Assembly: GCA_964448115.1 (NCBI GenBank)
Contig: CAYUVA010000043.1
Span: forward strand, 1-39,414
Length of the DNA: 39,414 nt
Source: an uncultured bacterium
GTDB lineage: Bacteria; CAYUVA01
Direction: 5' to 3'
Shown here piece by piece: positions 3,181-39,343 of this stretch. How positions within the stretch are numbered: the stretch's first letter is position 1; each line of letters opens with the position of its first letter. The notes below the pieces were generated by a model. It was given only the letters and a program-made list of their open reading frames with translations. It had not been told where the DNA came from and did not search any database. The position numbers and the translations under genes were made by a program.

Positions 3181-3410
3181 TATTTAACCACCGAGGCACA
3201 AAGACACGAGGGAAACACAAGGGATCTATCGTTTCTCGTTCCTTGTTTCTTGTTTCTCGTTTCAGATATGGCATGCCCAACCCCCAAATAAATTAAGGTG
3301 TTGAGGAGGTATGGCCGACCTCTGAAGTGGTTCAATACGCCATTATTACTCTATCACGGTAGCACGGTATCACTTCTTTCTTCGTGCCTTGGTGCCTTTG
3401 TGGTTCAATA
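3181..3410. repeat. 230-bp element bounded by 31-bp imperfect inverted repeats of the CACAAAG family
   Basis: 3181-3211 tatttaaccaccgaggcacaaagacacgagg vs reverse complement of 3380-3410 tattgaaccacaaaggcaccaaggcacgaag: 25/31 identical. Confidence 0.8.
3231..3265. repeat. Tandem heptamer repeat, 5 copies
   Basis: gtttctc gttcctt gtttctt gtttctc gtttcag. Confidence 0.8.
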
Positions 3411-3425
3411 GCTTCGCACCTCGCG

Positions 3426-4907
3426 CTATTTTTCCCTTGCCCTTTGGACTGCCCTTTTCCATCCTTGATAAAGCTCCTCGCGTTGATTATCCGAGATGCT
3501 TGGCTTAAAGATGCGCTCCATCTTGATTGTCGCCTTGATGTCATCGCCATCCTTGAAGATGCCTTCATGCAGCCCAGCGAGGAAGGCAGCGCCCTGTGCC
3601 GTCGTCTCGATATTTAGCGGGCGCTCGACTGGTACTCCGAGGATATCAGCCTGGAACTGCATCAGGAAATTGTTCACCGCAGCTCCACCATCGACCCGAA
3701 GTGAGCTTATCTGCTCGCCGGAGTCCTTAGCCATTGCCTCGACTATATCTCTGACCTGATATGCGATGCTCTCCAGTGTAGCGCGAACCATCTGTGCACG
3801 CCCACTCCCTCTGGTTAAGCCGACCAGGACTCCCCTTGCATTCATGTCCCAATATGGTGCTCCAAGCCCGACAAATGCAGGCACCAGGTAAACGCCATCG
3901 GTCGATTCGATGCTTTGGGCAATTGATTCGGTCTCTGCTGCGCTTTTTATAATCTTCAGCGAGTCCCTCAACCATTGAACAGCAGCGCCAGCGATAAAAA
4001 CAGAGCCTTCAAGCGCATAGACCGGCATCCCCTCGCCGTCGCTCGCAAGGGTGGTTACCAAGCCATGCGCGCTCTCAACCTGTTTATTACCCGTATTTAG
4101 AAGCAAGAAGCAGCCAGTGCCGAAGGTATTCTTGGCAGTGCCCGAAGTAAAACAGCCCTGCCCGAACAGGGCTGCTTGTTGATCCCCAGCCACTCCGCAG
4201 ACAGGGACTTCATTGCCCTGAAATAGCTTTGCATTTGTGGTGCCGAAAAGGCTCTTCGAGGGCTTTACTTCAGGCAAGAGGCTGACAGGAATGTCAAGAA
4301 TCTCAAGCAGTTCATCATCCCAGCGTTTCTCATAGATGTTGTACATCAGGGTTCTGCTGGCATTGCTGTAGTCGGTTACATGTTGCCCAGTAAGATTATA
4401 TATCAGCCAGCTATCGATGGTTCCAAAGGCGAGTTTGCCCTCAAGTGCCCCTTGGCGTGCACCGGGGACATTATCGAGCAGCCATTTGAGTTTAGTACCA
4501 CTGAAGTATGCATCGATCACCAGACCTGTCTTGTGCTTGAAAAGCTCCGCATAGCCCTCTTGTTTAAGCTTTTCACACAGCGGCGCGGTGCGCCGGCACT
4601 GCCAGACTATGGCATTGTAGATCGGCTTGCCGCTGATTCGATTCCACAGAACTGTTGTCTCACGCTGATTGGTGATGCCGATGCCGGCGATATTTGATGA
4701 TGAGATGCCCGCTTTTTTCAAAGCCTGTTCGATCATAGAAGCAGTGGCGACCCAGATCTCCATCGGATCATGTTCAACCCAGCCCGGTTTGGGATAAATC
4801 TGTTTGAACTCGGTGTATGCTTGGGCGATCGCTTCGCCGTTGGCAGCATAAACGATCGCCTTGGTTCCAGTGGTTCCCTCGTCTATTGCCATCAGGTATT
4901 TATCCAT
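3426..4907 (-). CDS. glpK: Glycerol kinase
   Basis: AIDEGTTG, GWVEHDP, GITNQRETT, IVWQCRRT, DAYFSGTK, GDQQAALFGQ, YALEGSVF, DGGAAVNNFLMQFQAD; start set to ATG 4907 behind GGAAGGGAG. Confidence 0.97.
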   Translation of the reverse strand: MDKYLMAIDEGTTGTKAIVYAANGEAIAQAYTEFKQIYPKPGWVEHDPMEIWVATASMIEQALKKAGISSSNIAGIGITNQRETTVLWNRISGKPIYNAIVWQCRRTAPLCEKLKQEGYAELFKHKTGLVIDAYFSGTKLKWLLDNVPGARQGALEGKLAFGTIDSWLIYNLTGQHVTDYSNASRTLMYNIYEKRWDDELLEILDIPVSLLPEVKPSKSLFGTTNAKLFQGNEVPVCGVAGDQQAALFGQGCFTSGTAKNTFGTGCFLLLNTGNKQVESAHGLVTTLASDGEGMPVYALEGSVFIAGAAVQWLRDSLKIIKSAAETESIAQSIESTDGVYLVPAFVGLGAPYWDMNARGVLVGLTRGSGRAQMVRATLESIAYQVRDIVEAMAKDSGEQISSLRVDGGAAVNNFLMQFQADILGVPVERPLNIETTAQGAAFLAGLHEGIFKDGDDIKATIKMERIFKPSISDNQREELYQGWKRAVQRAREK

Positions 4908-5129
4908 ATAATCTGCTCCCTTCCTGGTCTTCATCGATCCCAAGCCACAACTTTCAAAGAGCGCTCAACAATAAAGCGCTCCCTAACGATCACGGCTCAG
5001 ATTTCATGGGGACTCATACCTTTAATTTAAGTTAAAAGCCTTGAAGCCTGGGCTACACTCCTTCCCTTATCAATGGTAAAGCTAAAGTTGGAGCCATAAC
5101 TTCATAAACCCATTTAACCAAAGGACAAA

Positions 5130-5270
5130 ATGAAGATCTACATCAGCCTTGACATAAGTAAAGGCTATGCAGATGCTGTCGCTCTTGACAAAGATACCAA
5201 GCCTTGCGGCTTTATTAAGCATTCTACCCATAATCCTGACCGATATCAAGAGATGCCCCAATGGATGGCT
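5130..5270 (+). pseudogene. Decayed N-terminal fragment of an IS110-family transposase
   Basis: MKIYISLDISKGYADAVALD resembles the IS110 YxGxDxSK start; KHSTHNPDRYQEMPQWM resembles the FxNxxxGxxxLxxW motif; AAGGA SD; similarity ends after about 47 aa. Confidence 0.65.
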
Positions 5271-5303
5271 CTTATAGCAAATGGTGTTAAAAGCCATCAT
5301 AAT

Positions 5304-5329
5304 GTAGGGACAGGGCTTTCCCCCGCCCT
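5304..5329 (+). repeat. GTAG-type REP-like palindrome
   Basis: gtagggacagggctttcccccgccct: GTAG tetranucleotide followed by an imperfect GC-rich hairpin. Confidence 0.55.
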
Positions 5330-5480
5330 TTATTTAGGGAAACCACAATCCCAACCAACTCGGGACCACAGAAAAACATTGATAACATACATCGCTATAA
5401 TAGCCCTGCGGTTTCGCGTGAGATTCTTTCTTTGTATCTTGCACTATGGCTATGGATCATTTTCTATCATCCACAGGCTC

Positions 5481-5509
5481 TTGAAATTTCACACATTGTT
5501 TGGTAACTT
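5481..5509 (+). promoter_or_regulatory. Sigma70-type promoter for the thiolase/DUF35 genes
   Basis: TTGAAA-17-TAACTT with a TG extended -10. Confidence 0.5.
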
Positions 5510-5573
5510 CTGGTTGCTTTACTGATTGTAGCTCAAGCACCGATTCAAGTATTCACGGCAAAGGAAAGGCTCT

Positions 5574-6782
5574 ATGAGAAAAGTCGCTATCACATCAGTC
5601 GGGATCACAGAGTTCACCATGCGACACAACACCATGACCCACCAGGAGCTTGGCATCTGCGCTATTGCAGACGCTCTCCATTCATGCGAGCTGAAAGCCC
5701 AACAGATCGATGCGGTAATAATCTGTACGCCCCGGGAAATAACTGCCAGTCATTCTATCATTCCAGAGATGATCAAGGAGAACCTCGGAATAGAGAAAAC
5801 AAGGCTATTCAAGATGGGAGGAGATACAGCAGGGGGGCTGATCGCCGTCGTGCTTGCCTGGCAACTCATCGCTAATGGAGTCTTCCAAAATATCCTCGTT
5901 TGCGGACTGGAGAAGTTTTCGCCTCTGCTGGAGCAGGGAACCGATCCTAAATCGATCATCCCACGCGTCTTCGAGGGCTATACCAACAGCTTCTTCGAGA
6001 CCGATAGCCAAAGTGGGATTATTAAGTTCTACGGCGCTTTAGCCCAGAGATTCCTTGAGCGATTCGCAGATGAATTCAGCGAGCAGGATCTCCACCGGGT
6101 AGCAATTAAGAACCGGGATCATGCGCGGCGCAATCCCAAGGCTGCGCTTCCTATGGAGCTTTCCGTGGACGATTGGAGTCAGATGGAACCTATAGTCCCC
6201 CCACTCTATTCCCTCGATTGCCCTCCACTAGCTGATGCAGGGGCTGCGCTGCTTCTGAGTTCCGAAAAGCTCGCTTATGATGCGACTGACCACCCGGTAT
6301 GGATAATCGGCGCCGGCAGCGCTGATAACAAGATCGGATTGGGCGACAAGTTCGAGCAACAGGAATCTCTAATCTTCTTCCCGGCGACAAGAGAAGCCTT
6401 GCTCCAGGCTCTCGAAGGGTGCGATATGAAGATCGATGACCTGAGGGATGAATTACAGGTGATCGAGCTTGCCGATCAATATGGTATTGCTGAGATCGCT
6501 GCCTACTACGACCTTGGCTTGTGCAAACAGGGCGAACAGGGCAAGATGCTTGGCGAAGGTATCACAGCCCTCAGCGGGAAACTGCCGGTAAATACCAGCG
6601 GCGGATTAACCGGCATGGGCTATGCAGGAGCTGCCACCTCGCTTGCCCAAACCGCCGAGATATTCTGCCAGCTAAGGGAGGAGTGCGAAAAACGACAGGT
6701 CTATGGAGCTAAACGAGGGCTGGTGCACGCGCTCGATCTCAGCGGTTGCCTGGCTGCGGTTCTTATATTACAAAGAGGATAG
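5574..6782 (+). CDS. SCP-x-type thiolase-fold protein lacking the canonical catalytic residues
   Basis: VAITSVGITEF, CGLEK, KNRDHARRNPKA, DCPPLADAGAALLL, PVWIIG, LPVNTSGGL; followed by a DUF35 gene. Confidence 0.85.
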   Translation: MRKVAITSVGITEFTMRHNTMTHQELGICAIADALHSCELKAQQIDAVIICTPREITASHSIIPEMIKENLGIEKTRLFKMGGDTAGGLIAVVLAWQLIANGVFQNILVCGLEKFSPLLEQGTDPKSIIPRVFEGYTNSFFETDSQSGIIKFYGALAQRFLERFADEFSEQDLHRVAIKNRDHARRNPKAALPMELSVDDWSQMEPIVPPLYSLDCPPLADAGAALLLSSEKLAYDATDHPVWIIGAGSADNKIGLGDKFEQQESLIFFPATREALLQALEGCDMKIDDLRDELQVIELADQYGIAEIAAYYDLGLCKQGEQGKMLGEGITALSGKLPVNTSGGLTGMGYAGAATSLAQTAEIFCQLREECEKRQVYGAKRGLVHALDLSGCLAAVLILQRG

Positions 6783-6784
6783 AT

Positions 6785-8002
6785 ATGAAACGGTTAAGCT
6801 CTAAGAAACTTGATCCCCAGCAGATGCATCGCATCGATAGATCCTTTATGGTCAAGGGCATTTATAGCATGGGGAGCCAAAGCCCGTTTTTCCAGTATTT
6901 GGCAGAGAAACACCTGGCTGCCAGCCACTGTCCTGACTGCGACCAGGTCATCTTTCCGCCCAAGGCTTACTGCCCCAAGTGCTTAACCCTTACCGAGTGG
7001 GTTGAGATAGAAGGCAAAGGAGAACTATTTGCTGTAATCAGCCTGATAGATGCACATATTGAGCCTAACCATGATCAGCGCTTCGAGGTCTTCGTATCAC
7101 TGACCGAATGCCAGGCGATCATCAGGACTACCATAGCACAGGTGATGCCGGAGGACCTGGTCATCGGGTTGCCGGTGGTGGCGGTCTTTGCTGATCAGCC
7201 CCTAGGGGTATTCGATGACCTGTATTTCGTGCCCGCACAGCCTACTGCACAAAGAAGATACCGCGGTGAAAAGATAATAGAAGAGGTTGCTGCCACTATC
7301 CCCGAAGTTGGGGATGAATCCAAGCCTGGATCGGCAGACCAAGCTGAGGAGGAGGCATTCGAAACCGCCCCGGTTACAGGCGAAACCAGAGAACATGCCG
7401 AGGAGGCAGAAAAGGATATCCATCCACAGATCGCTGATGAGCAGATGGAAATGCAGGATACTATTGAAGAACAGCAGGATGAGAGCGAGCAATCCGAGGT
7501 AGTTGCCACCCCTGAACAGCCTGCTCAACAAGAAGATTTATACAAACCAGAAGAGGAATATACCGCCCAGGCTTATGAATACGAACCAGGTGAGCCAGTC
7601 GATGGTACCGAGTTGATTAAGGTAGAAAAGACCAGTTCCGAAGAACCTTTTTCCGAAGAGGAACAGCTCGAACCGGTTACCGACCAAGACCAGAAGGAAA
7701 GGGAGATTCCCGATAAAGATGCCGATAAAGATGATGATATTCTACTTGAGGAACTTGATGAGGGGATGGTCGCTGAGATCACTGATATCAAGTTCGACTT
7801 CGAGGAGGACGCCGAGGATTACGATGATTACGAGGAATCGCTGAGCGCCGGTGAGCTGCAGCTCGATGAGGTAGAGATACTCTTCGAGGATGATTCCTCG
7901 GATGAAGAATTCGACCTCGATGATGAACCGGAGAGCAAAAAGGCTAAAGAACCAAAGAAGAACAAGAAAAATAAGCATAGGCAAGATAAAGAAGAGGACT
8001 GA
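6785..8002 (+). CDS. DUF35 Zn-ribbon/OB-fold protein with a very long acidic C-terminal extension
   Basis: CPDC..FPPKAYCPKC..EWVEIEGKG..IGLPVVAVF, then about 240 low-complexity D/E-rich residues; ATG 6785 after GAGG, 2 bp after the thiolase stop. Confidence 0.85.
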   Translation: MKRLSSKKLDPQQMHRIDRSFMVKGIYSMGSQSPFFQYLAEKHLAASHCPDCDQVIFPPKAYCPKCLTLTEWVEIEGKGELFAVISLIDAHIEPNHDQRFEVFVSLTECQAIIRTTIAQVMPEDLVIGLPVVAVFADQPLGVFDDLYFVPAQPTAQRRYRGEKIIEEVAATIPEVGDESKPGSADQAEEEAFETAPVTGETREHAEEAEKDIHPQIADEQMEMQDTIEEQQDESEQSEVVATPEQPAQQEDLYKPEEEYTAQAYEYEPGEPVDGTELIKVEKTSSEEPFSEEEQLEPVTDQDQKEREIPDKDADKDDDILLEELDEGMVAEITDIKFDFEEDAEDYDDYEESLSAGELQLDEVEILFEDDSSDEEFDLDDEPESKKAKEPKKNKKNKHRQDKEED

Positions 8003-8095
8003 TACCCTACACTTGCAGGCTGGCAGCTTACCATCGGCACCGGTCATTATTTCATGAAACTTAAAAAAGCTAAGGGAGGAACCTTCGACTGAACA

Positions 8096-8893
8096 ATGCC
8101 ACAGATCCCCAAAAAACGCCCTACACTTGAAGAGATAAGAAAAAGCCTGCTGCCTGATATCGAGATAATCTACCAGGTCCTCCAACAGGCTGGCGTCCCA
8201 CTCGGTATCTCAGATATCACCGAACGTTTCCTCGAGTTGAGGCCATTAGAGGTGAAGAATCCGCCACTTGCTTTGAGAAATAGAATAAAAAATCACTCCC
8301 CGAGCAAGGGACGAATAATCAGCATCAATAAAAAGTATGCCCTTGAGAACTGGTATTATAACCGCGTGCCAGCTCGTGTGCGCCTAAGCGCATCGGAAAT
8401 AGAGAACGGGATCATCTCCATTGATTGGGTGCTCAGCCTCTTTTTCCCCAACAATGAAGTGAAGGCTAGATTCATCAATCAACCTGATGGCTTGCCGATT
8501 AAGGGAGCGATCCTGGAGATCTTCGGTAGCCCTAGGATATCCAAACTAAGCAGGTGGTATATGGACAATTGCGCTCAGCCTGGCGATGAGGTGATAATAA
8601 CCCCCATAGATATCGACAACTGCGAGTACCTGGTGCGCTATGAACCGAGCCAGAAGCGCAATCACAAGAAGATTGCCAGAGCCAACAAGGTCTTCACCGA
8701 TACGGTCTATGAGGTGCTATCCGAGCAGGGCAAGCCGCTTCCCCTTTATGATCTGATCCCCCTGGTACACAGCCGCATCGATTGGAACAAGATCGAGGCT
8801 CCGGAGAACTACATCGAGATCCTGAGTGGGGACAGCCGCTTCGAGATGGCGCGCTATTTCCAGCCCTCTTTAACAGAGTGGCATTACCATTAG
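8096..8893 (+). CDS. Hypothetical protein, probably two winged-helix (HARE-HTH-like) domains around a beta-rich domain
   Basis: IYQVLQQAGVPLGISDI and VYEVLSEQGKPLPLYDL repeats, ending YALENW and SLTEW; GGAGG about 18 bp upstream. Confidence 0.6.
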   Translation: MPQIPKKRPTLEEIRKSLLPDIEIIYQVLQQAGVPLGISDITERFLELRPLEVKNPPLALRNRIKNHSPSKGRIISINKKYALENWYYNRVPARVRLSASEIENGIISIDWVLSLFFPNNEVKARFINQPDGLPIKGAILEIFGSPRISKLSRWYMDNCAQPGDEVIITPIDIDNCEYLVRYEPSQKRNHKKIARANKVFTDTVYEVLSEQGKPLPLYDLIPLVHSRIDWNKIEAPENYIEILSGDSRFEMARYFQPSLTEWHYH

Positions 8894-8910
8894 GCTGCCT
8901 AACCAATCGA

Positions 8911-8939
8911 TTGACAGCGCATCATTCAACAGCTATCTT
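8911..8939 (+). promoter_or_regulatory. Sigma70-type promoter of the envelope operon
   Basis: TTGACA-17-TATCTT. Confidence 0.65.
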
Positions 8940-8979
8940 AAGGTAATGATAGGAAATTATTATTAGCAAAGGAGTGCCC

Positions 8980-9786
8980 ATGAGATATCCAAACCGATTA
9001 GCAATAACATTCACCATTCTGCTGATAGCACTGGTCTGCTCAATGCCACGGGTCCTTGCGTCCGATGATGATAGCGCATTGACCGGTAAAGAAATAGTGC
9101 AAAAAGTCATCGATAAGGAAGAGCCGACTAGCTCAAAGGCTGATGTGAAGATGATCCTGGTAAATAAGCGGGGAGATAAAAGGATAAGGGAAATAATCCT
9201 TTACCGTATGGAAATCGATGACCTGACAAGAACCATGATCCGCTTTTTGAAGCCAGATGATGTGCGGGGAACGGGATTCTTGGTGCGTGAGCGAAAAAAC
9301 GAGGATGACGAGCAGTTCTTATACCTGCCAGCCTTGGGCAAAGTGAAGCGCATAGCCTCCAGCCAGAAAAGCTCCAGCTTCATGGGCACCGACTTCACCT
9401 ACGAGGACCTGCAAAGCACGGATCTCAGGGAGGATGACGAACATAAAAGGCTGGCTGATGAGACCATCAATGGACAAGATTGTTATGTGGTAGAGACCAT
9501 ACCATCCAAAGAGAGGGATTCGCAGTACTCCAGGCTGGTGAACTGGATTCGCAAGGATAACCTGATACCGATAAAGACCGAGTTTTACGATAAAAAAGGC
9601 AAGTTGCTAAAGGTGATGGAGGTAAAGAAGCTGGACAAGGTAGATGGCTACTGGACTCCGCTTGGCACACTTATGCGCAATGTACAAAAGGATCACCAGA
9701 CCCTGCTGGTTGTTGACAGTGTAAGCAATAAGGCTGAGTTGTCCGAGGAATACTTCACCGAGCGCTACCTGGAGAATCCGCTCTGA
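8980..9786 (+). CDS. Outer-membrane lipoprotein-sorting protein (LolA-like family)
   Basis: Signal peptide; RFLKPDDVRGTGFL, QFLYLPALGKVKRI, SFMGTDFTYEDL, EFYDKKGKLLK; AAGGAG SD before ATG 8980. Confidence 0.88.
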   Translation: MRYPNRLAITFTILLIALVCSMPRVLASDDDSALTGKEIVQKVIDKEEPTSSKADVKMILVNKRGDKRIREIILYRMEIDDLTRTMIRFLKPDDVRGTGFLVRERKNEDDEQFLYLPALGKVKRIASSQKSSSFMGTDFTYEDLQSTDLREDDEHKRLADETINGQDCYVVETIPSKERDSQYSRLVNWIRKDNLIPIKTEFYDKKGKLLKVMEVKKLDKVDGYWTPLGTLMRNVQKDHQTLLVVDSVSNKAELSEEYFTERYLENPL

Positions 9787-9817
9787 TAACAAGACCTTCT
9801 ATCTGCTTTCTTCGGTT

Positions 9818-10201
9818 ATGAGAAGGATTACGATACAAGTCATTTTTATACTTGGCATAACGCAGGTTTTATGCTGCTCATCCAATCAACGCTGGATAAG
9901 GCAACAAAACGACTTTGCCATAACCTGTGCGAAACATGATCTCTGGGATGAAGCCTTGTACAGATGGAAGCGCATTCTCGATAAGGATCCCGATAATCCG
10001 AAGGCGCTGAACAACTTGGGAGTAGCAATGGCAAAAATGGGGAATTTCACCGAGGCTTTTGAATTCCTGCGCCGGGCTTACCAGATCGCCCCAAAGAACC
10101 GGAGAATAAAGGAGAACCTTCAACTGATCGAGAGATACCTGGCTGGTTCACTAAAACCTAAACAGAAGCAATTGGAGACCGATTTCAAAAAATATATTTA
10201 G
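9818..10201 (+). CDS. Small TPR protein, probable lipoprotein
   Basis: Hydrophobic N-terminus ending VLC-C; TPR motifs WDEALYRWKRILDKDPDNPKALNNLGVAM and EAFEFLRRAYQIAP. Confidence 0.8.
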   Translation: MRRITIQVIFILGITQVLCCSSNQRWIRQQNDFAITCAKHDLWDEALYRWKRILDKDPDNPKALNNLGVAMAKMGNFTEAFEFLRRAYQIAPKNRRIKENLQLIERYLAGSLKPKQKQLETDFKKYI

Positions 10202-10214
10202 CCACTTGCTTAAC

Positions 10215-10916
10215 ATGAAGCACTCATCCATAGGAAACCTCAATTGTTCCAGCCTATTTGCCATGCTTCTGCTCAGCCTTGTGTCTTTGCTGCCTGCCGG
10301 ATGCCTTATCCGCGATCGGGTTATGGTAGAGTTTCCTCGCCAGGCGGTAATAAAAACCCAAGGGATTCAAGTTTTAGGTGTGGTGCCAATCGCTACCACA
10401 GGAAACGACTTGAATGAGGGGGACGAATTCGCTCGCATGGTGATTAACCGCCTCAATAAAGAGAAGATCTTTAAGCAAGTTAAAAGGATCGAACTTGAGG
10501 ATTTCCTTGCAACCTTAAATGAGGCTTATGCAAAGACAAAAGGCAACAGCGCATACTGGAATTATCTTAAAAAGCATCTTGCCGTCGATGCTGTTTTATA
10601 TGGCAATCAGACCTTCAGCAGCCGGGACGCCAAGGGGATCGTTACTGAGGAGTACTATGATTACATGGGAAGGCTCAGGCAGCGCGATGTCTATAAGGAT
10701 CAAACCCTTTATTTATTGACTATCACTATCGAGATGGTATCTCTGGATAACGGAGAGACCCTGTATAGCAAAAAATTCGAGAAGGACAACCTGGTCGATG
10801 GCAGGGGATTTGGAAATATCTACGGCTATTACGACCTGGCAAGCCAGGTGCTCGCCGAGCTGGTGGACAAGCTCAAGCCTTCGCCGATGCAAAAGGAGAT
10901 GTACCTTGCGCGCTGA
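10215..10916 (+). CDS. Lipoprotein, CsgG/LpoB-like fold (tentative)
   Basis: Lipobox LPAG-C; LGVVPI..HLAVDAVLYG..IEMVSLDNGETLYSK pattern; start uncertain (10206, 10215 or later). Confidence 0.6.
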   Translation: MKHSSIGNLNCSSLFAMLLLSLVSLLPAGCLIRDRVMVEFPRQAVIKTQGIQVLGVVPIATTGNDLNEGDEFARMVINRLNKEKIFKQVKRIELEDFLATLNEAYAKTKGNSAYWNYLKKHLAVDAVLYGNQTFSSRDAKGIVTEEYYDYMGRLRQRDVYKDQTLYLLTITIEMVSLDNGETLYSKKFEKDNLVDGRGFGNIYGYYDLASQVLAELVDKLKPSPMQKEMYLAR

Positions 10917-13686: not shown

Positions 13687-13692
13687 CTCCAA

Positions 13693-15225: not shown

Positions 15226-15418
15226 GTCCCCCTATCTAATCCAAGTTCTTTCCATTATCATTTATATCATACCTCAAGCCAATATCAAACAAAAACGAAT
15301 GTTTCTATAACCATCGTTAACTTTAAGGAGAACAACTTTGGCATAGTCGCTTAGGAAAATTGCCGAAAAACCACATAATTAAAAAATGCTCATTTGACTT
15401 GCTTTCCTTTTCGGGTCA

Positions 15419-15447
15419 TTGACTAATTGAGCTAGATTATGTAAGGT
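15419..15447 (+). promoter_or_regulatory. Probable gyrA promoter
   Basis: TTGACT-17-TAAGGT; TAAGGAG SD at 15475-15481. Confidence 0.5.
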
Positions 15448-15490
15448 ATATCGATCACTTTTAGTTTCCATCCCTAAGGAGTTTAGAACA

Positions 15491-17917: not shown

Positions 17918-17980
17918 TAAAAGTCTTTAGTCTGTGGTTATTTGGCTTAAGGTTAATAAAACCATTAAGGGAATCTCATC

Positions 17981-18520: not shown

Positions 18521-18533
18521 GCAATTGACCTGT

Positions 18534-19322: not shown

Positions 19323-19390
19323 AGCAGTTGCTATATATAACAACCCAATCGGGATTGCAACCTGGAAATAGGCATAAGGCGTGAGATTAT

Positions 19391-19419
19391 TTTAACCACA
19401 AAGGCACAAAGACACAAAG
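19391..19419 (+). repeat. CACAAAG-family repeat, three perfect units at 8-nt period
   Basis: tttaac-cacaaag-g-cacaaag-a-cacaaag. Confidence 0.85.
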
Positions 19420-19570
19420 AGAGAAAAGAGATCGGATACTCACTATATGGTCGAAACAAGCACGACCGCAATGGGTTGCAAGCAACCTATAGAATACCGA
19501 TGTCATTCGCTTTTGAGCCATGCTCAATGCCGATGAGAAACTTGGAATGACAGTTAAGGCAAGAAAATTA

Positions 19571-19612
19571 TGACCTGCGAAATTGCGTTATCTTTCTTAA
19601 GAGGTGATCTAA
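19571..19612 (+). repeat. 42-bp dispersed repeat, copy 1
   Basis: 33/42 identical, ungapped, to 39302-39343. Confidence 0.75.
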
Positions 19613-19660
19613 TATGAGAAAAACCACTGGCTCGAAATATGCCAAATATCGGTCATCTGC

Positions 19661-19689
19661 TTGCAGGTATAGGAATTCTCGGCTATATT
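19661..19689 (+). promoter_or_regulatory. Probable promoter for the phosphoesterase-GT9 genes
   Basis: TTGCAG-17-TATATT, 10 nt before ATG 19700; no SD. Confidence 0.4.
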
Positions 19690-19699
19690 TCACTGTATT

Positions 19700-20740: not shown

Positions 20741-20752
20741 CACTAAGCCCGC

Positions 20753-21826: not shown

Positions 21827-21857
21827 GGTAAGATGCTGCCATGTCAGCAACCGGGCA

Positions 21858-22637: not shown

Positions 22638-22787
22638 TTCGAAATCTGGTTTCCAAAGACTTTATCTTTATAACATTAGCATTTAGCGATAAAATTATAA
22701 AGCAACAAGCAGGCTCGGGATGGTTCGGTTAATGGTGTCTATCTGTTTGTCAAAAACCTCATCTTATGATAGTGAGAGCATGATCTG

Positions 22788-24245: not shown

Positions 24246-24251
24246 AAGCGG

Positions 24252-26759: not shown

Positions 26760-26776
26760 GGTCTATATAGGATACT

Positions 26777-28834: not shown

Positions 28835-28837
28835 ACA

Positions 28838-31108: not shown

Positions 31109-32168
31109 CGATCCTCACCACTTTCGCATTTCCCCCAGCCCTTTTTATCGCCTCCACTACCGATGCTTCGTTACCAGGGGCATAAGCGGTGAAGCATCCA
31201 CCGCCCCCGGATCCGTTCAGCTTGCATGCCAGAGCACCCGCTTTCATCGATGCGGAGATGAGCATCTCGATCCGCTCGGTAGATATGCCCAGCCAGTCCC
31301 TGATCACAACATGTTGTCTATTTAAAAGGTCGGCGAATGCTTCCCTATCTGGCTCAATGCAACCAGAAAGCAAATCGAGACCCTGCTTGGTTATCTGCCG
31401 GGTCATCATGGTGCCCACCAGCCTTCTACCGCCTCGCAAAGGGAGGCGGGCAAGGTCCTCGATAGCCTCTTCCGCGCTCGAATAGGATAGGGAGAATTCA
31501 GGCTTCATCTTTTGCATCATATCAAGTGCCTGAAGAACATCCCTCTTGATCTCAGCCAACATCCCGGTTGTATCCTTGGTGGTCAGCGAATCCCCCAGCA
31601 CTAGTCCATCTATCCTTGCATTTAACCTTGTTACCTTGAAGATTTCAGAGCAATCTACATGGATGATGCCACCAAGCGCACAGGCGTAATGATCCATCAT
31701 CCCCCCCGGCTCATCGAACTCCACTACCTCTGCCTGGTAGCCTAAGTTCGCCAGCTCTTCACCCCCCAAGGAGGTGCCTTGCACCGCGATCTCAGACAGC
31801 AACCTCGCCCAGGCGATGACCAGAGCTGATGAGCTGCTGATCCCCTTGCCAATGGGGATCTGGCTTTTTACCTCGCAGTCCCAGCCGCCATCAAAGCGAT
31901 ATCCCCCGCGCAGAAGCACATTGTAAACGCTGCGGAGGTAGTCGCGCTGCCTCCTGTAGGGCGCCGGTTCATTAGGTTGCAGCTCATCGACAGCTTCAAT
32001 ATCGGGCATTTTAACCTTTATCTTACTATCACGGTCGATCCTCAAGCCGCTGATCACCAGGCGCAGGTTTATGGCAGCAGGTATTACGCCCAACCCGAAG
32101 TAGTCCTGGTGTTCGCCGAGCAGGCAGATCCTGGCTGGCGTGGAGACCTCGATCTTATCTCTTCCCAT
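31083..32168 (-). CDS. GHMP kinase, galactokinase-like
   Basis: PARICLLGEHQDY, IPIGKGISSSSA, GMMDH, KLNGSGGGGC. Confidence 0.88.
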   Translation of the reverse strand: MGRDKIEVSTPARICLLGEHQDYFGLGVIPAAINLRLVISGLRIDRDSKIKVKMPDIEAVDELQPNEPAPYRRQRDYLRSVYNVLLRGGYRFDGGWDCEVKSQIPIGKGISSSSALVIAWARLLSEIAVQGTSLGGEELANLGYQAEVVEFDEPGGMMDHYACALGGIIHVDCSEIFKVTRLNARIDGLVLGDSLTTKDTTGMLAEIKRDVLQALDMMQKMKPEFSLSYSSAEEAIEDLARLPLRGGRRLVGTMMTRQITKQGLDLLSGCIEPDREAFADLLNRQHVVIRDWLGISTERIEMLISASMKAGALACKLNGSGGGGCFTAYAPGNEASVVEAIKRAGGNAKVVRIDDGTRLEE

Positions 32169-33309
32169 CGATTAGCTCCTTGATTGCCAGCACCTCGCCT
32201 GCCAGCCTATTATAGGACTGGGTGAACTCAGGTATGCACAAGCTGCATTCCTTTGGATACCCACCAGCGAGCATCTTCTTTCTAAAGCGCTGCATGGTTT
32301 CCCCCTTCCATAACATGGAGAATGGCGTCTTATGGACATTGCCTAGCAGGTTGCTGTACTTGGCTGCCAGTGTGCAGCAAACCATCACATCGCCATCGGC
32401 GTTGATGAAAGCCATCGTGTAAGGCGCAAAGCAGATCTTCGGAGGATCATGCCTTCCCAAGCCATACTCAAGTATCGAGCGATAGTTTGTGTATATTCGC
32501 TTGGATTCAGCCATCTTACCGAATCTTTCTATGTGCTCCAGTGCTTCCTTTTGTTTATTATTTGGTATCCAGAATGGCTTGTTGCTCTCCCATTCGAGCA
32601 AGACAGATAGGTTTATGGCTACAACACCGAACTGTTCGGCAATTTGTATTAACCGATCCAGGCTGGAGTAGTTGAGACTGGTGAGCACAGTGCCGATGCG
32701 CAGCACGGGCAGGTTAGAGTTTTGCTTTTTCCTAGCCTCGCTCAGGTTCCTCAAGCCCAACATAGTGCGTTTGAATGCCCACTTGCCGCGTATCCTGTCA
32801 TTTATCGACTCGAGGGGCGAATCCAATGAAACGCAGATATCATCATGCCCGGCAGCCACTATCTCACTCGCCAGCTCCTTATCGATAAAGGTAGCATTGG
32901 TGGTAAAAGAGCCTGTCATGCCTCGTTTCTTGATCGCTTTTATGATATCAAGGATGTCCTTTCGTACCAGCGGCTCACCGCCACCGGTGAAATCGACCTC
33001 GCCTACTCCCAGGTTTTTTAAATCATCCAAGATATCCTTTAACTTCTTCAGGGACATATCCTTTTTTTTAGCCATATCCAGCCTCATCTTTTTAGCATCC
33101 TGGAGCCGCCAGCAGATCGGACAGCTCAGGTTGCACTTGTCAGTAGGACTGATCATCACCCTTTGCGGGGGGATGTCTTGGTCAAGAAAGACTGCCTTAT
33201 ATAGCCTGATCGCCTGCTCGGAGAACCTGTCCGAACCCTCCAGGCTCGATAGCAGATCAGCCGGCGAGGATCCTTTTATTGTGCCTATAAGTCTCTTTAT
33301 TATGCTCAT
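32155..33309 (-). CDS. Radical SAM protein with SPASM/Twitch domain
   Basis: CNLSCPIC, GGGEP, TTNAT, VSLDS; C-terminal CFAPY..DGDVMVCC..LGNV..CSLC. Confidence 0.92.
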   Translation of the reverse strand: MSIIKRLIGTIKGSSPADLLSSLEGSDRFSEQAIRLYKAVFLDQDIPPQRVMISPTDKCNLSCPICWRLQDAKKMRLDMAKKKDMSLKKLKDILDDLKNLGVGEVDFTGGGEPLVRKDILDIIKAIKKRGMTGSFTTNATFIDKELASEIVAAGHDDICVSLDSPLESINDRIRGKWAFKRTMLGLRNLSEARKKQNSNLPVLRIGTVLTSLNYSSLDRLIQIAEQFGVVAINLSVLLEWESNKPFWIPNNKQKEALEHIERFGKMAESKRIYTNYRSILEYGLGRHDPPKICFAPYTMAFINADGDVMVCCTLAAKYSNLLGNVHKTPFSMLWKGETMQRFRKKMLAGGYPKECSLCIPEFTQSYNRLAGEVLAIKELIDGKR

Positions 33310-33316
33310 GTATGGA

Positions 33317-34426
33317 CTAAAAGCGAACCGAACGCTGCGGTTCGGGGATGAATCTCTTCGTGGTGATACGCATAAAATCCCTCAGGTAGGTAATATTATA
33401 GCACCCAATGGGGCATTTCCCCTCGAATATTGAACGCCTTATCATAAGCGCATCCGGCGATCTCCACAAATCGAGTATATCTTCAGAAAGAAGGTTGCCC
33501 ACCGAGTGCGGGTATTCCCAGACGCAACAGGGCTTCAGGTTGCCCATAACATCGACCCCGAATGAGTATGCCAATCCACCGCAGCGCACCGGCAGCCTCG
33601 GCGATGACCAATATAGCGGCGCAAAGCGGTAATAGAACCAGTTCCTTGCCACCCGGTAGTCCCTGCTCCTAAGATAAGCTATCGCCTCCCTGTATCGCTT
33701 GATATCGCAGGGAAGGCGGGGATAGAAGTCCCGCTGACCCTGCACCGGGTTCAGGTTGAAGTAAATGCCCAGATCCCGGCTCAGCTTGAAGGCATCAATA
33801 ACCTGGTGCAGGTTGCGATTGGTAGCGACGAAGGTGATCTCGATCTTGTCGCCCTCGAGGTATCTTTTAAGCGACTCGATCCCACCGATAGCCCGCTGGA
33901 ATGCTCCCTTGCGGTCTCGAAGCTCATCATGCAGCTCTTCCATTCCATCAATGCTGACGCTTACATAGATGGCATCTTTGAAGCGACCTAGCTTCTCGGC
34001 ATATCGTTCAAGAAGCATTCCGTTGGTGCTGAGCAGAAGAAATAACCCCTTTCTATATGCCTTGTCCATTATCTCGATGATGTCAGGGTGGGTGAGTGGC
34101 TCGCCGCCTGTGATGTTTAGCTCTTTTACTCCCAAAGCATGGGCAGCATCGATGATTTTCTCTGCCGAATCCAGCGCCATTATCCTGGGATTCTCCATCG
34201 TCTTGAACTCGCAGAAGATGCATGACAGGTTGCAGACCTCGCTGATCAGAAGGTTCATCGAGACCGGCAATGGGGGATCAGCATTGCCACCAAGGTGCGC
34301 CAGGTACTTTTTAATAAAGGCGCGATCAGCTCTATGCTGCCTTACTTTATCTCGCAGTACCCAATACGGATACCGATAGTCTTTTACCGTTCGTCTTATG
34401 TGTTGAAGCCACCTACTTAATGGCAA
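33317..34426 (-). CDS. Radical SAM protein with SPASM/Twitch domain
   Basis: CNLSCIFC, TGGEP, STNG, SIDG..HDELR; C-terminal CGGL..GNLKPCC..VGNL..CPIGC. Confidence 0.92.
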   Translation of the reverse strand: MPLSRWLQHIRRTVKDYRYPYWVLRDKVRQHRADRAFIKKYLAHLGGNADPPLPVSMNLLISEVCNLSCIFCEFKTMENPRIMALDSAEKIIDAAHALGVKELNITGGEPLTHPDIIEIMDKAYRKGLFLLLSTNGMLLERYAEKLGRFKDAIYVSVSIDGMEELHDELRDRKGAFQRAIGGIESLKRYLEGDKIEITFVATNRNLHQVIDAFKLSRDLGIYFNLNPVQGQRDFYPRLPCDIKRYREAIAYLRSRDYRVARNWFYYRFAPLYWSSPRLPVRCGGLAYSFGVDVMGNLKPCCVWEYPHSVGNLLSEDILDLWRSPDALMIRRSIFEGKCPIGCYNITYLRDFMRITTKRFIPEPQRSVRF

Positions 34427-35600
34427 AATAAAGCTCCTTATAACGCAATGCTATCCTTTCCCAGTCGTAGCCTTGCACGAACTCCCATCCGTTGGCGGCG
34501 AGTTGTCCAGCCAACTTCGGATCCTCGATCAATTTGCATACAGCCTGAGCCATGTCTTCCGGGGTTTCTGCGATGAGTACATTCTCGCCATGAGTAAGCT
34601 CGATCCCCTCGATCCCCTTGGCTGTCGAGACTATGGGTACGCGTGCTGCCAGGTACTCGAAGATCTTCAGGCGCGTGCCTCCACCGCTGCGAATCGGAAC
34701 CACCGCAACATCGGCAGCCGACAGATGGCTGGGCAGATCCGCCACCGCTCCAGTGAAGATACAGTCATCATTATTCACCAGGTAGGGGGGAAAATTTCTA
34801 CCAACCAGCAGCGCCTTAACACCATGCCCGGCTTGTTTTATAAAAGGGATGATCTGAAAAATGATCTCCTTAAGCGCAGCAAGGTTGGGTGCATAGGTAT
34901 AATCGCCGTGAAATACTATTATGGGCGAGTCGATATTCAGCAACTCCCGCACCCGCTGGGGGGTTAGGCTCTGATAGCGCTCAAGGGCGACCCCGTGAGG
35001 GATTATCGCTATCTTGCCCTGCTCGATACCTAGTTCCATAAGCCTTTGTTTATCGGCTTGCGAAACGGTGATCAAGTGATTGACCTTCTTGCACATTGCT
35101 TTTTCAACTGCCACTGCGAAGCGCTCTCCCTTTTCATCGAGGCTCCCCTGCTCCTTCAGCCTATGGCACTCGATGTTATGTTCCACCAGGGAGCTTTTTA
35201 TCCCCAATAGTCCAGCAGCGAACAGCACCGGAGCAGCAAAGGCAGTGAACTCGGCTTGCAGAAGATCGAGTTTCTCCCTGGCTGCTACATATAGAGCCTT
35301 AACGAACAGGTTGAGATCGAATAACGGCATATAGATCAGGCGGTCATGAAAAGGGATGCGATAATATGACAAGACAGCATTGGCAAGGAATTGGTTCTTA
35401 GGATAAAACCTCATCCAGAAGGGATATCGCATAAGCTCAGGCTCGGCATCTCTGAAGCGAAGATATCCTGTATCATCGGTGGTGATGAGATAAGTCTCCA
35501 CGCCGACCCTGCCTAAATATCGGGCAGTGGAGACTATCTTGGCAGCAGCGCCGTGGATCTCGGGGAAAACATCCCCCCTGGTAACCATCCCGACCTTCAT
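34413..35600 (-). CDS. Glycosyltransferase family 4
   Basis: EHNIE, TVSQAD, IPHGV, YAPN, PIRSGGGTRLKIFEYLA, YDW. Confidence 0.92.
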   Translation of the reverse strand: MKVGMVTRGDVFPEIHGAAAKIVSTARYLGRVGVETYLITTDDTGYLRFRDAEPELMRYPFWMRFYPKNQFLANAVLSYYRIPFHDRLIYMPLFDLNLFVKALYVAAREKLDLLQAEFTAFAAPVLFAAGLLGIKSSLVEHNIECHRLKEQGSLDEKGERFAVAVEKAMCKKVNHLITVSQADKQRLMELGIEQGKIAIIPHGVALERYQSLTPQRVRELLNIDSPIIVFHGDYTYAPNLAALKEIIFQIIPFIKQAGHGVKALLVGRNFPPYLVNNDDCIFTGAVADLPSHLSAADVAVVPIRSGGGTRLKIFEYLAARVPIVSTAKGIEGIELTHGENVLIAETPEDMAQAVCKLIEDPKLAGQLAANGWEFVQGYDWERIALRYKELYFAIK

Positions 35601-35606
35601 AACCTA

Positions 35607-35718
35607 TAATTTATCACGCTAGGACACAAAGAAGAAGAAAGAGTTTCACGCAAAGTCGAAAGAAATAGAAGTCTCACCCAAAGACGCAAAGTCGCAAAGT
35701 ATCAAAGAGAATGCAAAG
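35607..35718 (+). repeat. Array of degenerate TCACGCAAAG/CGCAAAG units
   Basis: tcacgctaggacacaaag (35614), tcacgcaaagtcgaaag (35646), tcacccaaagacgcaaagtcgcaaagtatcaaag (35674). Confidence 0.75.
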
Positions 35719-35972
35719 ATAATATATTACGAGCAACATCAATAGATGAGTCGTTTTTAGGTAAACCTTTTGGTTATGCTCTAACGAAGAATACCATTCA
35801 TCGTTGACAAAGCCCCTGCGAGCTGCGAACAAGGCTTTGCAGGGCGTTCACTTTCAGGTGTTCGATTTTCGAACTATGGTGGATTTGGCTCATGAGGGAG
35901 ACTTCATCTACTTCGATCGCCCTATGAGCCAATAAGCAAAACAGCGAATTTTTTTGCTAAAATAGTCTTATC

Positions 35973-37040
35973 ATGAAGCTGATCATTTTCGCTCCACATC
36001 CGCCGGGTAATGCCAGCAGCCACCATCGTGTATATCAGTACATACCCCATCTCGAAAAGGCGGGTATCGAGTGCACGGTGCGACCATTCTACTCGAAAGA
36101 ACTGTTTAAGATGCTCTACCAGAGTGGAAAGGTCTTCAAGAAAGGGCTTTTATTCTTATGGTGTCTGCTGAGGAGAGCTTATCATGCCCTGACTGCATAC
36201 CGATACGATGCTGTCTTCATCCATCGTGAGATAAATCCGCTACGAGGCAAGTGCCTTGAATGGCTGCTGATCAGGATAAACCCACGAGTCATATTCGACT
36301 TCGATGATGCGATCTACCTGCCGGTGCAGCATGTAAAAAGGTTCGGCTTGATCCTAAAAGACCCGAAAAAGGCTTATCTCTGGATGAAGAAAGCGCGGGT
36401 TGTGATTGCAGGAAACCGGCATCTCGCCGAGGTGGCTCGAAAATACAACAGTGATGTTGAGATATTACCAACTCCGGTCGATCTTGAGCGGTATAAGCTA
36501 GAGGAAAAAGGCGCTCAAGATTCGCTTACCATCGGCTGGATCGGCACCCAGGACAACCTTCGTTACCTGGAGAGGATCATCCCTGCACTGCGTGAACTAG
36601 CAAAGCGCCACCGTTTCAGGTTTCTCATCTTCTCTGGCGCAAGCATCGATGTCCCCGAAGTGAACATTGAACATGTCAAGTGGAGCAACCATATTGAGCC
36701 AAAGGTGCTAAGATGCTTCGACATTGGAGTTTATCCGCTTCCAGATGACCAGTGGACACGAGGCAAATGTGCCTTCAAGGGACTGCTTTATCTTGCCAAC
36801 GGTATCCCGGGGGTCTATTCAAGGCTGCCTGCAATCGAGGAGATAATCAAGCAGGGGCTTAATGGCTTCATAGCATCCGAAACAAAGGAATGGATCGAGT
36901 ATCTCGAAATCTTGATTCAGGATGAGCAACTACGGACAACAATGGGTAACATCGCTCGCCAGACATTCCCAAATGCGTTTGAGCTAAGATACTGCGCAGA
37001 AACATTGATAAAAAATCTCAATAAGATAACAAGATCATAA
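35973..37040 (+). CDS. Glycosyltransferase family 4
   Basis: HRVYQY, FDFDDAIY, IAGN..LA, IGWIG, FDIGVYPL..GKCAFK. Confidence 0.9.
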   Translation: MKLIIFAPHPPGNASSHHRVYQYIPHLEKAGIECTVRPFYSKELFKMLYQSGKVFKKGLLFLWCLLRRAYHALTAYRYDAVFIHREINPLRGKCLEWLLIRINPRVIFDFDDAIYLPVQHVKRFGLILKDPKKAYLWMKKARVVIAGNRHLAEVARKYNSDVEILPTPVDLERYKLEEKGAQDSLTIGWIGTQDNLRYLERIIPALRELAKRHRFRFLIFSGASIDVPEVNIEHVKWSNHIEPKVLRCFDIGVYPLPDDQWTRGKCAFKGLLYLANGIPGVYSRLPAIEEIIKQGLNGFIASETKEWIEYLEILIQDEQLRTTMGNIARQTFPNAFELRYCAETLIKNLNKITRS

Positions 37041-37136
37041 CAATATTGAAATATATCGAACCTTTGGGGATACTTGCATTTTTTCTTACTAGAGTTAATA
37101 TAGGGTTTAAGTTAAAGGTTTTTTTAGGAGTCATAG

Positions 37137-37700
37137 ATGAGTGGAACTAAATTTTTTAGCTTTTTTATCTTAGTTGCCTTGATAGCCATGTTAGTGAACG
37201 CCTGTAGCACTGATGAGACCAAGACCTATCTTTACGGCGCATTCATAGCAGCCAATCCGGACCCCCCCGACTATTCGGTCGCTATGGTGGAACGGGAGCA
37301 GACCAGCGATTATTTCATCGTGGATATAACCGTTTTTGACATCAACGATACTGCCGTTTACGCCGCTGCCTTCGATGTAGTTTACAATCCAGAGGTGATA
37401 GAGTTTATTGAGTGGGAGCAGGGCGAGTATCTTGAACAAACATGCAGCAGTGTCAATTATGCCGTGGAGCCGGATAGCGTGGAGGAAGGTAGGATCATTG
37501 TTGGCATCACCCAGAGCGGCAGTTGTCCAGGTGTGTTAGGAGGTATTGGAGTCCTATTGTCTATGAAATTTAGCGTCATTGCGGAAAAAAAGACTATCAT
37601 GGCATTTGAGAACAACGGACTTTATGATCCCGATGGTAAATATATTACCGGGATTTTATGGTACGGGGGCAGGGCATTCGGCACTGAGACAACAAGATAG
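37137..37700 (+). CDS. Cohesin-like-domain lipoprotein
   Basis: AGGAG SD; lipobox VNA-C; FIVDITV..AFDVVYNPEVIEF..GEYL..GRIIVGI..GVLLSMKF. Confidence 0.7.
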   Translation: MSGTKFFSFFILVALIAMLVNACSTDETKTYLYGAFIAANPDPPDYSVAMVEREQTSDYFIVDITVFDINDTAVYAAAFDVVYNPEVIEFIEWEQGEYLEQTCSSVNYAVEPDSVEEGRIIVGITQSGSCPGVLGGIGVLLSMKFSVIAEKKTIMAFENNGLYDPDGKYITGILWYGGRAFGTETTR

Positions 37701-37835
37701 AAAATTCAGATACTCACACTCATCCTGAGTATGAAACCGTATATGAACATACCCTCTTGCTCATATCTCTCGCCAGATATCTTAATATTACAGTTCGCGT
37801 AGTAATCTTTATTTGTCATAAGGCATGAAAGGCAT

Positions 37836-39122
37836 TCAATCAAATTTTGCATCCTTCTTTAACTGCATTATCCTCAGCTCTTTGGGATACATCAGCATCT
37901 TGCCGGGCCAGGGGTCGAATATCCCCTTTACCGCAAGCCAAATCGAGGTGCACAATATCAAAAGCAATGTCGCCGCTATAAATCTACGCTTCAGCAGTGG
38001 CAAAATCCTCGGCAGGAAAACAAACAACAATGGTATCATGCTGATGTAATACCTCGTAGAGTAGCCTATGCCACCGTAAGAGGTCGTACTCAGGATGTGA
38101 TAGCTGATGTGCAAGACGACCACAAACACGAACGCCATCGCCTGGCGCCGGTGCCTTGCCGTCGGCTTAAGCGCCTCGATCAACAGCATCATAAGTCCAA
38201 CTACCAGTATTGGGCTGTAGCGAAACAAGCCGCGATCCCCCAAGAGCGAATGCCAGGCGTAATTCAATGTAGAACTCCAGGTCTTCTCCTCGAAGTTCTC
38301 CGGTGGTTGCCTAAGCCAATGCCCCACTTGCCAAGCCTCCGGGTGCAGGTACGATGGCAGCAGGTCGCCAAAGACCATGTAATTTACCGTAAAGTGCACT
38401 GCTAATGGTGGTATCATGCCCGCAAACAATAGGAGTATGCGCCATCGATATAATTTTCGGTAGCTAACAAGAAAAATTGTGCTCCCTAAGGACATGAATG
38501 CCCCGCCTGGCGCCTCAAACGACCCACCAAATCCGAGTAAAAGCCCCATCAGAAGAAGGCTACCATCGCTTATTCGCTCCGACTCCCTCATTGAGAACAG
38601 AAGATAGATAACCCCCGTTATGCAAGCCGCCGCTGGCACATGTGCATTGAAGGTTACGCTGTACGACAGTAGGATAGTCGAAATTACAAAGCTAAGTGCC
38701 ATAAACACACTCCAGGAATGACCCATCATAAATGCATCCCTGCTGAGGTGATACATGAGGTAAGCGCAAAACAAGCTGCACAAGCCAACCGTACAAAGAG
38801 TAACCACCCAATAACAGAGCCACATCTGCCCACTGAAGCTGATACCGACTACATTATAGAGTAGCCAGTAGATTACGGCACCCCAAAGGCTGAGCATAGG
38901 GAGTTTATCGCTGTAAAGCCTGCCGTTGACCAGGATCTTATCGCCAGTCTCGAATACCTTGCTTTGGTCGATAGACAAGCTGCCACGCTCAACAAGAGAC
39001 TCCACGGTAGCAAGACGACTGCGGTCATTCCATGAGCCAGGCTGATGTTTAGTCGCCAATAAAAGTAGCAGCGCCAGCCCAATCAACCACTTAAGCCTTA
39101 ATATGTACCTGCAAGCACCCAC
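37836..39122 (-). CDS. Multi-TM GT-C-like protein, paralogue of the membrane domain of 26777-28834
   Basis: NDRSRLATVESLVERG, LYSDK, RGLFRYSP, STRYY; start set to in-frame GTG 39122 (track: TTG 39143). Confidence 0.75.
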   Translation of the reverse strand: MGACRYILRLKWLIGLALLLLLATKHQPGSWNDRSRLATVESLVERGSLSIDQSKVFETGDKILVNGRLYSDKLPMLSLWGAVIYWLLYNVVGISFSGQMWLCYWVVTLCTVGLCSLFCAYLMYHLSRDAFMMGHSWSVFMALSFVISTILLSYSVTFNAHVPAAACITGVIYLLFSMRESERISDGSLLLMGLLLGFGGSFEAPGGAFMSLGSTIFLVSYRKLYRWRILLLFAGMIPPLAVHFTVNYMVFGDLLPSYLHPEAWQVGHWLRQPPENFEEKTWSSTLNYAWHSLLGDRGLFRYSPILVVGLMMLLIEALKPTARHRRQAMAFVFVVVLHISYHILSTTSYGGIGYSTRYYISMIPLLFVFLPRILPLLKRRFIAATLLLILCTSIWLAVKGIFDPWPGKMLMYPKELRIMQLKKDAKFD

Positions 39123-39247
39123 CAATACTAATTTATCACGCAATAAAGCAAAGCAACAGGTTCTCTTTGGAATTTTCTAAATATGCAATTATTTTACAAA
39201 AATCATGATATTTTACGATTTTTTTAGAATAAAGGAAAGAAAGAGGA

Positions 39248-39297
39248 TCACGCAAAGACTCAAAGAACCCAAAGAAGAAAGGTCAGAAGACACAAAA
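39248..39297 (+). repeat. TCACGCAAAG-family repeat
   Basis: tcacgcaaagactcaaagaacccaaag...gacacaaaa. Confidence 0.7.
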
Positions 39298-39301
39298 ATC
39301 T

Positions 39302-39343
39302 TGACGCGCAAAATTGAGTTATCTTTCTATGGAAGTAATCTAA
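39302..39343 (+). repeat. 42-bp dispersed repeat, copy 2
   Basis: 33/42 identical to 19571-19612. Confidence 0.75.

Follow-up and report, generated by a model that had tools for sequence, protein, structure and literature searches.

Oriented octamer arrays in the spacers of an uncultured bacterium match the arms that flank GxxExxY genes elsewhere

Short extragenic repeats that occur in hundreds of copies and flank one dedicated gene have been described as REP/REPIN sequences, with RAYT as the associated protein (Bertels and Rainey 2011, PMC3116915). A comparable arrangement is that of the Ssn nucleases, tiny single-domain enzymes encoded in the order repeat-gene-repeat, for which the cognate NTS/SRM repeat is the substrate (Chenal et al. 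2025, PMC11893778). In Beggiatoaceae, TAACTGA heptamer direct repeats form about 170 oriented intergenic sets, with a few in genes and a patchy distribution over phyla; most sets terminate shortly before a start codon, and according to the abstract no mechanism of transfer is evident (MacGregor 2015, PMC4679880). Here we analyze a family of oriented repeats with an 8-nt period and C(A/G)CAAAG units, found in a stretch of 39,414 nt from an uncultured bacterium (contig CAYUVA010000043.1 of assembly GCA_964448115.1; the whole stretch is referred to as the window), and compare it with gene cassettes of the GxxExxY family (PDDEXK_3/TIGR04256), whose entry in the table of Steczkiewicz et al. (PMC3424549) gives the function as unknown and mentions no flanking repeats.

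Each repeat copy (hereafter arm) is a tandem array, whereas a REP is a palindrome. The arms resemble REP/REPIN sequences in being extragenic and numbering in the hundreds, in flanking one dedicated gene, in including inverted doublets able to form hairpins, and in that gene-less copies far outnumber the gene. In contrast to the Y1 HUH transposase of the REPIN/RAYT system, the arm-linked protein is a predicted PD-(D/E)XK nuclease, and no match to the Y1 (RAYT) transposase family PF01797 was found in the genome from which the window comes. Unlike in REPINs, an inverted pair is present in only 23 of the 142 arm-bearing spacers and singlets are not more decayed (p=0.17); because most copies are solo, the REPIN doublet does not describe the family. 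With Ssn/SRM the arms share a tiny nuclease gene flanked by repeats and many dispersed gene-less repeats, but Ssn is a GIY-YIG protein with a CGTC-tagged hairpin repeat, whereas GxxExxY combines a PD-(D/E)XK fold, and an activity that is predicted, with a tandem-array repeat. Unlike the TAACTGA repeats, the arms cluster past stop codons, have a fixed head, form inward pairs and are linked to a nuclease gene. The structure of a classical miniature inverted-repeat transposable element, in which terminal inverted repeats enclose DNA without a gene, would fit those 23 spacers; most of the arms, however, stand solo, and what lies between the paired ones is unrelated mosaic sequence. The arms probably work like REP/RAYT or Ssn/SRM, yet belong to neither. 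No description of the pairing of these arms with GxxExxY was found in the literature searched; supplements and subscription papers outside that search could list such octamers.

On balance, we favor the reading that the repeats match the arms of a cassette composed of an arm, a GxxExxY gene and an inverted arm, and that the approximately 250 arms of this genome, given that no GxxExxY gene is detectable in it, are likely non-autonomous remnants whose spread is predicted to have been driven by that nuclease.

Inward orientation and spacer position of the arms

The window is contig C43 of an 86-contig, 3.98-Mb assembly (G000; 94% complete), in which fragments of TCACGCAAAGACGCAAAG are the commonest 12- to 16-mers genome-wide after the CRISPR repeat (a CRISPR-like 29-nt repeat occurs there approximately 142 times). 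A 22-position profile, seeded with 87 strict matches and iterated on G000, found 250 genomic copies at 16 bits or more compared with 3 in the reversed genome; since the profile was trained on the copies that it counts, the count is evidence of abundance, and position and orientation were unused in training. Data had already been viewed when the cut-offs (16 bits; 5 matches per genome) were chosen and when the generic pattern for arms, applied below, was written. The 8-base-period repeat family is real, and the period and the two heads, AACCAC and TCACGC, which an earlier note on the window had proposed, are confirmed.

Genes were called with a simple custom caller (2851 genes, 88.8% coding), which often placed start codons late. 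Non-coding DNA holds 222 of the 250 copies (214 under the longest possible frames), namely 196 in 142 spacers and 26 past the last gene of a contig, so the intergenic bias suspected from the window holds in a genome that is 89% coding. In spacers with both orientations the arms face inward in 23 of 23 cases, whereas 2000 runs of random placement gave a mean of 5.1 inward arrangements (maximum 13) and 6.5 others. Of the 119 spacers with a single orientation, 88 have the copy directed away from whichever gene is closer. Convergent spacers are enriched relative to the number expected from their length (31 versus 14.3) and divergent ones are depleted (20 versus 39.8). A stop codon precedes 97 of the outermost heads, by no more than 60 nt in 72 cases; another 68 heads are turned toward a start, at widely scattered distances that have a median of about 88 nt and run from 13 nt to several hundred. 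The rule of the earlier note, by which the pyrimidine-rich strand precedes gene starts and the purine-rich strand follows a stop, holds in the window, where it results from geometry (the head lies near a gene end and the array extends into the spacer), and so reflects the location of the element ends. Genome-wide, copies sit mostly just past stops, the stop codon being the dominant partner, and no preference for preceding starts is seen.

Folding of four pairs gave z values between -3 and -7, for one strand or both, in three of them and -1.9 in the fourth. A preferred pairing of unlike head types was not convincing (14 of 21 typed pairs are mixed). Only one inward pair shorter than 2.5 kb encloses a called gene, compared with four outward ones, and a contig end or gap lies within 500 nt ahead of 11 of the 250 arms. 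Arms also share their spacers with other small repeats. Among the spacers that contain a GTGATA-type array, 32 of 43 have an arm as well (3.5 expected), as do 16 of the 27 with GGCTTGA-type heptamers (2.2 expected). The heptamers lie mostly outside the head (12 of the 15 heptamer arrays near an arm are outside it and co-oriented), and the GTGATA arrays mostly inside, co-oriented.

GxxExxY genes, variable sites and in-frame insertions

A GxxExxY gene is present in 16 of 60 unrelated genomes, where its flanks bear inward arrays of the same kind, and such genes occur in 57 of 250 sampled genomes; GxxExxY with arms is found across many phyla. One GxxExxY cassette (L005, genome G026) has two arms with which the window copy at 19391-19420 agrees at 28 of 30 and 25 of 25 positions. 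The link to GxxExxY genes stated in the earlier note thus holds at other loci, and its proposal that the repeats are cis-acting ends of a poorly described type of cassette is supported by these flanks together with the strictly inward arrangement in spacers.

A scan of GTDB with an AACCAC-type 18-mer gave at least 124 loci, and among those listed 77 had at least 500 nt ahead of the arm and 76 behind it. Of these listed matches, 57 have an inverted partner ahead and 9 have one behind, and a GxxExxY gene within 700 nt is always ahead and never behind, on either strand (six genes). In a metagenome scan with a TCACGC-type 18-mer (127 loci), 47 loci had the partner ahead and 6 had it behind; of the two loci with a GxxExxY gene, one has the gene inside an inward pair, and at the other it lies ahead of the minus copy and behind the plus copy used as reference.

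The converse approach started from the 60 best-scoring GxxExxY loci, of which 55 had a near-full match (five of these 55 found through the arm), with a generic pattern written after the flanks had been seen. An inward arm lies within 200 nt of 45 of the 55 genes, compared with an outward arm at 14, and of 40 of 50 once the five arm-found loci are removed. The G000 profile itself, at 16 bits or more, is matched inward at 17 of the 55 genes (12 of the 50 not picked by arm) and outward at 4. The type of arm follows the protein tree, with 7 changes for AG-ending arms (17.4 when shuffled) and 5 for AT-ending arms (11.1 when shuffled), and in both cases none of 500 shuffles was as low; the CAAAG period-8 type is found in 5 of 7 members of one well-supported clade and also outside it. 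Of the 60 genomes, six have at least 5 arm matches, and five of these carry GxxExxY, compared with 11 of the remaining 54 (p=0.004).

In an alignment of 21 GxxExxY proteins, Asp62 and Lys74 are invariant and Glu72 is nearly so, and the structure model (predicted local distance difference test score of 96) has a PD-(D/E)XK fold. Its best matches are BpuSI (Z 8.2, root-mean-square deviation 2.3, 88 aligned residues) and SSO0001 (Z 8.0, root-mean-square deviation 3.7, 98 aligned residues), the latter presumably a Cas4 protein; with Z about 8 these matches indicate the fold class only and not a function. The GxxExxY profile gave 0 matches among the sequences of solved structures. The gene between the arms elsewhere belongs to PDDEXK_3, the sole family that was tested and found there.

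Presence of the arms varies at one orthologous site, as seen in nine kin of G026. The same membrane-protein gene lies upstream of tyrS in each case, and the spacer that separates the two measures 56 nt in G063, where it has no arm. In G069 it measures 252 nt and includes a single gene-less pair, and in G068, at 358 nt, it includes three such pairs in tandem. These three genomes represent one genus; in a sister genus, G026 and G061 carry a complete cassette directly after tyrS. The comparison of filled and empty sites that the earlier note had proposed could thus be made in the kin of G026; for G000 itself the nearest genomes in the collection share only the domain and the best homologue of the GT2 glycosyltransferase described below is 37% identical. 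At the G026 cassette, the right arm is followed first by a diverged copy of the tyrS 3' end (L005:1280-1420) and then by another arm, which suggests that insertion can bring duplication of a neighboring gene end.

Within G000, arms have also entered reading frames. The GT2 gene on C20 (L032:1373-2410) encodes 37 residues between two conserved motifs, compared with 10 in 110 of 111 measurable homologues (119 were compared, 8 falling outside the motif pattern). The insert comprises 81 nt, or 27 residues in frame, consisting of two co-oriented arms starting at a head, and the junction, as read from the sequence and with no clean empty allele, permits a duplication of 0-2 nt. A membrane-protein gene on C59 (L033, G000:C59:16100-18442) has approximately 37 extra in-frame residues relative to its closest paralogue, made up of two arms and a hairpin repeat that is present elsewhere in the genome. 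Neither insert has an inverted partner, and the two cases may reflect either one-ended insertion or later loss of one end. A third candidate, a possible short insertion of approximately 5 residues in a GT4 gene on C50, judged against two of three paralogues, was not counted.

Spread of the arms and competing explanations

The spread that we propose, by analogy with Ssn and RAYT, would begin with the PD-(D/E)XK protein binding an array of C(A/G)CAAAG units, probably as single-stranded or hairpin DNA, and nicking beside the head. Host repair would then copy the arm, solo or with adjoining DNA, into a new site; copies would persist mainly just past stop codons, the place of least harm. Other small repeat families accumulate at the same spots, giving rise to mosaics.

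Several observations weigh against this reading. Neither a GxxExxY gene nor a fragment of one was found in the 94%-complete G000 assembly by TIGR04256, PF13366, tblastn or our own profile, and the two genomes richest in arm matches, G000 (131) and G056 (93), are both without the gene. Few arm loci hold GxxExxY (6 of 124 among the matches listed, and 2 of 127), and 119 of the 142 arm-bearing spacers show one orientation only. Solo and paired arms have similar median scores (24.7 and 26.0 bits), the agreement of arm type with the protein tree is a pattern that simple co-inheritance also gives, and neither a target-site duplication nor an exact junction could be fixed.

The main rival, which we consider rather unlikely, is that slippage and tandem duplication, together with gene conversion from one copy to another, spread the arms without a nuclease, and that GxxExxY merely rides between pre-existing arms. 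The absence of the gene from the most arm-rich genomes, the dominance of solo and tandem arms, the tandem triplication of a gene-less pair and the duplicated tyrS end beside a cassette would all fit such a history; however, arm type tracks the protein tree across unrelated genomes, the gene is always ahead of the arm in the GTDB loci among the matches listed, and slippage makes no fixed head and cannot move a head to mid-gene. It is improbable, in our judgment, that the arms are host regulatory sites where transcripts begin or end, acting through a bound protein or through RNA structure, a role that has been proposed for the TAACTGA repeats of Beggiatoaceae (PMC4679880). Their strong intergenic bias, the proximity of most heads to a stop (72 of 97 within 60 nt), the hairpin-capable inward pairs and the excess of convergent spacers (31 versus 14.3 expected) would suit a regulatory role, but the distance to starts is not fixed, one orthologous site has no arms in one genome and a triplicate set in another, some arms occur inside coding sequence, and arms are found in many phyla around one gene family, with no Rfam match anywhere in the window. 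A possible secondary use of the arms is as terminators or stabilizers.

Very improbable is the remaining explanation, foreshadowed by the earlier note, that the arms are recombination sites inserting or shuffling glycan and envelope genes. Four of the five listed arm-bearing spacers of the window border glycosyltransferase or lipoprotein genes, and the clearest in-frame insertion lies in a GT2 gene, but genome-wide there is no enrichment. The comparison was limited to GT4, GT2 and PMT_2-type GT-C genes (38, 53 and 90 Pfam matches in G000, mapped to 171 called genes; 8 matches were unmapped to gene calls), which adjoin 18 of the 142 repeat-bearing spacers and 244 of the 2229 others (Fisher p=0.49), with no excess by spacer length, by family, or in 2- and 5-kb neighborhoods. 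The concentration at envelope and glycosylation genes claimed from the window is therefore not supported at the level of the genome: the arms are not glycan-specific, and the tie to glycan genes is a local impression of the window, in a genome that is itself rich in such genes. The scarcity of inward pairs that enclose a called gene (1 compared with 4 outward) also argues against shuffling. In source-sample contigs, from three sequencing runs of one sample that is probably the source of the genome, no inversion or shuffling was seen at the arms, which is a weak test. A depth-2 contig that skips 3209-3374 has 22 nt on its short side and more likely represents another locus. G000 has a very large glycosylation complement and no close relative in genome or protein collections.

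If the arms were spread by the GxxExxY nuclease, a new nuclease fold would join the selfish systems that combine a repeat with an enzyme, and short repeats would have a route to add loops to proteins. The arms represent a concrete candidate substrate, with clade-matched variants, for a family of unknown function, and thus a single oligonucleotide assay can test the idea, as for Ssn; the window by itself, which holds orphan ends only, is of lesser value. We tentatively hypothesize, as a possibility that goes well beyond the reading favored above, that GxxExxY proteins are, after Ssn, a second large group of tiny nucleases with site specificity, in which every clade recognizes a tandem array of its own; that the mobile unit is the single arm rather than the inverted pair and is pasted head end first into new sites, including genes, in frame; and that several such families insert beside or inside one another in a set order, building the intergenic mosaics of many uncultured bacteria.

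Copies in the window and neighboring repeat families

Six window copies score 21-30 bits (3184+, 3386-3407-, 19392+, 35612+, 35672+ and 39246+) and a seventh, 35644+, scores 14 bits; every strong copy lies within a non-coding spacer (Table 1). The pair at 3184-3409, between a GT4 gene and glpK, is predicted to form a long hairpin (RNA fold z about -3 compared with 60 dinucleotide shuffles), and 3231-3410 shows 82% identity to a stretch on contig C21.

Table 1. Arms and associated repeats in the window, with strand and profile score or other basis.
Positions	Strand	Feature	Basis
3184..3219	+	AACCAC-type arm, left end of inward gene-less pair	21.1 bits at 3184-3205
3380..3409	-	AACCAC-type arm closing the pair on the right; glpK stop 16-19 nt from its head	23.8 bits at 3386-3407
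3184..3409		Entire gene-less inward pair, fills GT4-glpK spacer	Inward orientation
3229..3263	-	Nested 7-nt-period array, TCGTTTC unit, 5 copies, separate repeat family inside pair	Tandem repeat
3353..3378	-	Nested GTGATA-type 8-nt array, immediately inside right arm	Tandem repeat
5406..5435	-	Probable truncated TCACGC-type arm, purine-rich leader, abuts 136-nt repeat	Inferred; profile score below 0
19368..19388	+	Co-oriented heptamer leader (GGCGTGAG type), outside arm	Shared leader behind several arms
19391..19420	+	Solo AACCAC-type arm upstream of lgt, best-scoring window copy	29.8 bits
35612..35718	+	Series of three TCACGC-type arms, co-oriented, upstream of GT4 gene 34413-35600	23.7 bits (35612), 14.1 bits (35644), 24.7 bits (35672)
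39129..39153	+	Marginal degenerate arm	7 bits with flexible gap, near background
39232..39282	+	TCACGC-type arm, purine-rich leader, 147 nt from contig end	26.6 bits at 39246-39267

The strong copies in the list of the earlier note stand, and its four faint ones fare differently. The copy at 5406-5425(-) scores below 0 on the profile, allowing for a flexible gap, yet it has the TCTCACGC head and a purine-rich leader and is plausibly a truncated copy. That at 39129 is marginal, the flexible-gap background in reversed non-coding DNA being 0.23 matches per kb at 6 bits or more and 0.10 at 8 bits or more. The remaining two belong to other repeats: 5365-5382 sits within a separate 136-nt repeat (5270-5405), and 19379-19388, listed as a reversed partial copy, reads on the plus strand as a GGCGTGAG heptamer leader of the kind seen behind several other arms. 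The 136-nt element is a GTAG-headed hairpin with a 95% identical twin at G000:C1:40742-40877, and it overlaps a 131-aa open frame (5130-5525) without a Pfam match.

Other repeats were also observed in the window. A second dispersed non-coding repeat of approximately 57 nt occurs at 19556-19612 and 39287-39343 (75% identical to each other) and has at least 19 genomic copies, all outside called genes and at variable distances to starts; it may represent a solo insertion-sequence end. A hairpin-like repeat at 35770-35840 has approximately 5 further genomic copies, the best two 90-95% identical, and the last stretch of the contig (39342-39414) is repetitive, matching the end of C46 at 93% identity, and has several-fold higher depth. 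We tentatively label the nested hairpins REP-like and SRM-like, by resemblance. Elsewhere in G000, one four-helix-bundle gene lies between inverted 7-nt-unit arrays (L001, G000:C6:83890-84192) of a heptamer family that lies outside many arms, and on C17 a 95-aa GIY-YIG gene is followed by several CGTC-type hairpins (L036:1489-1776), an arrangement that, judged from its sequence, looks like an Ssn/SRM unit.

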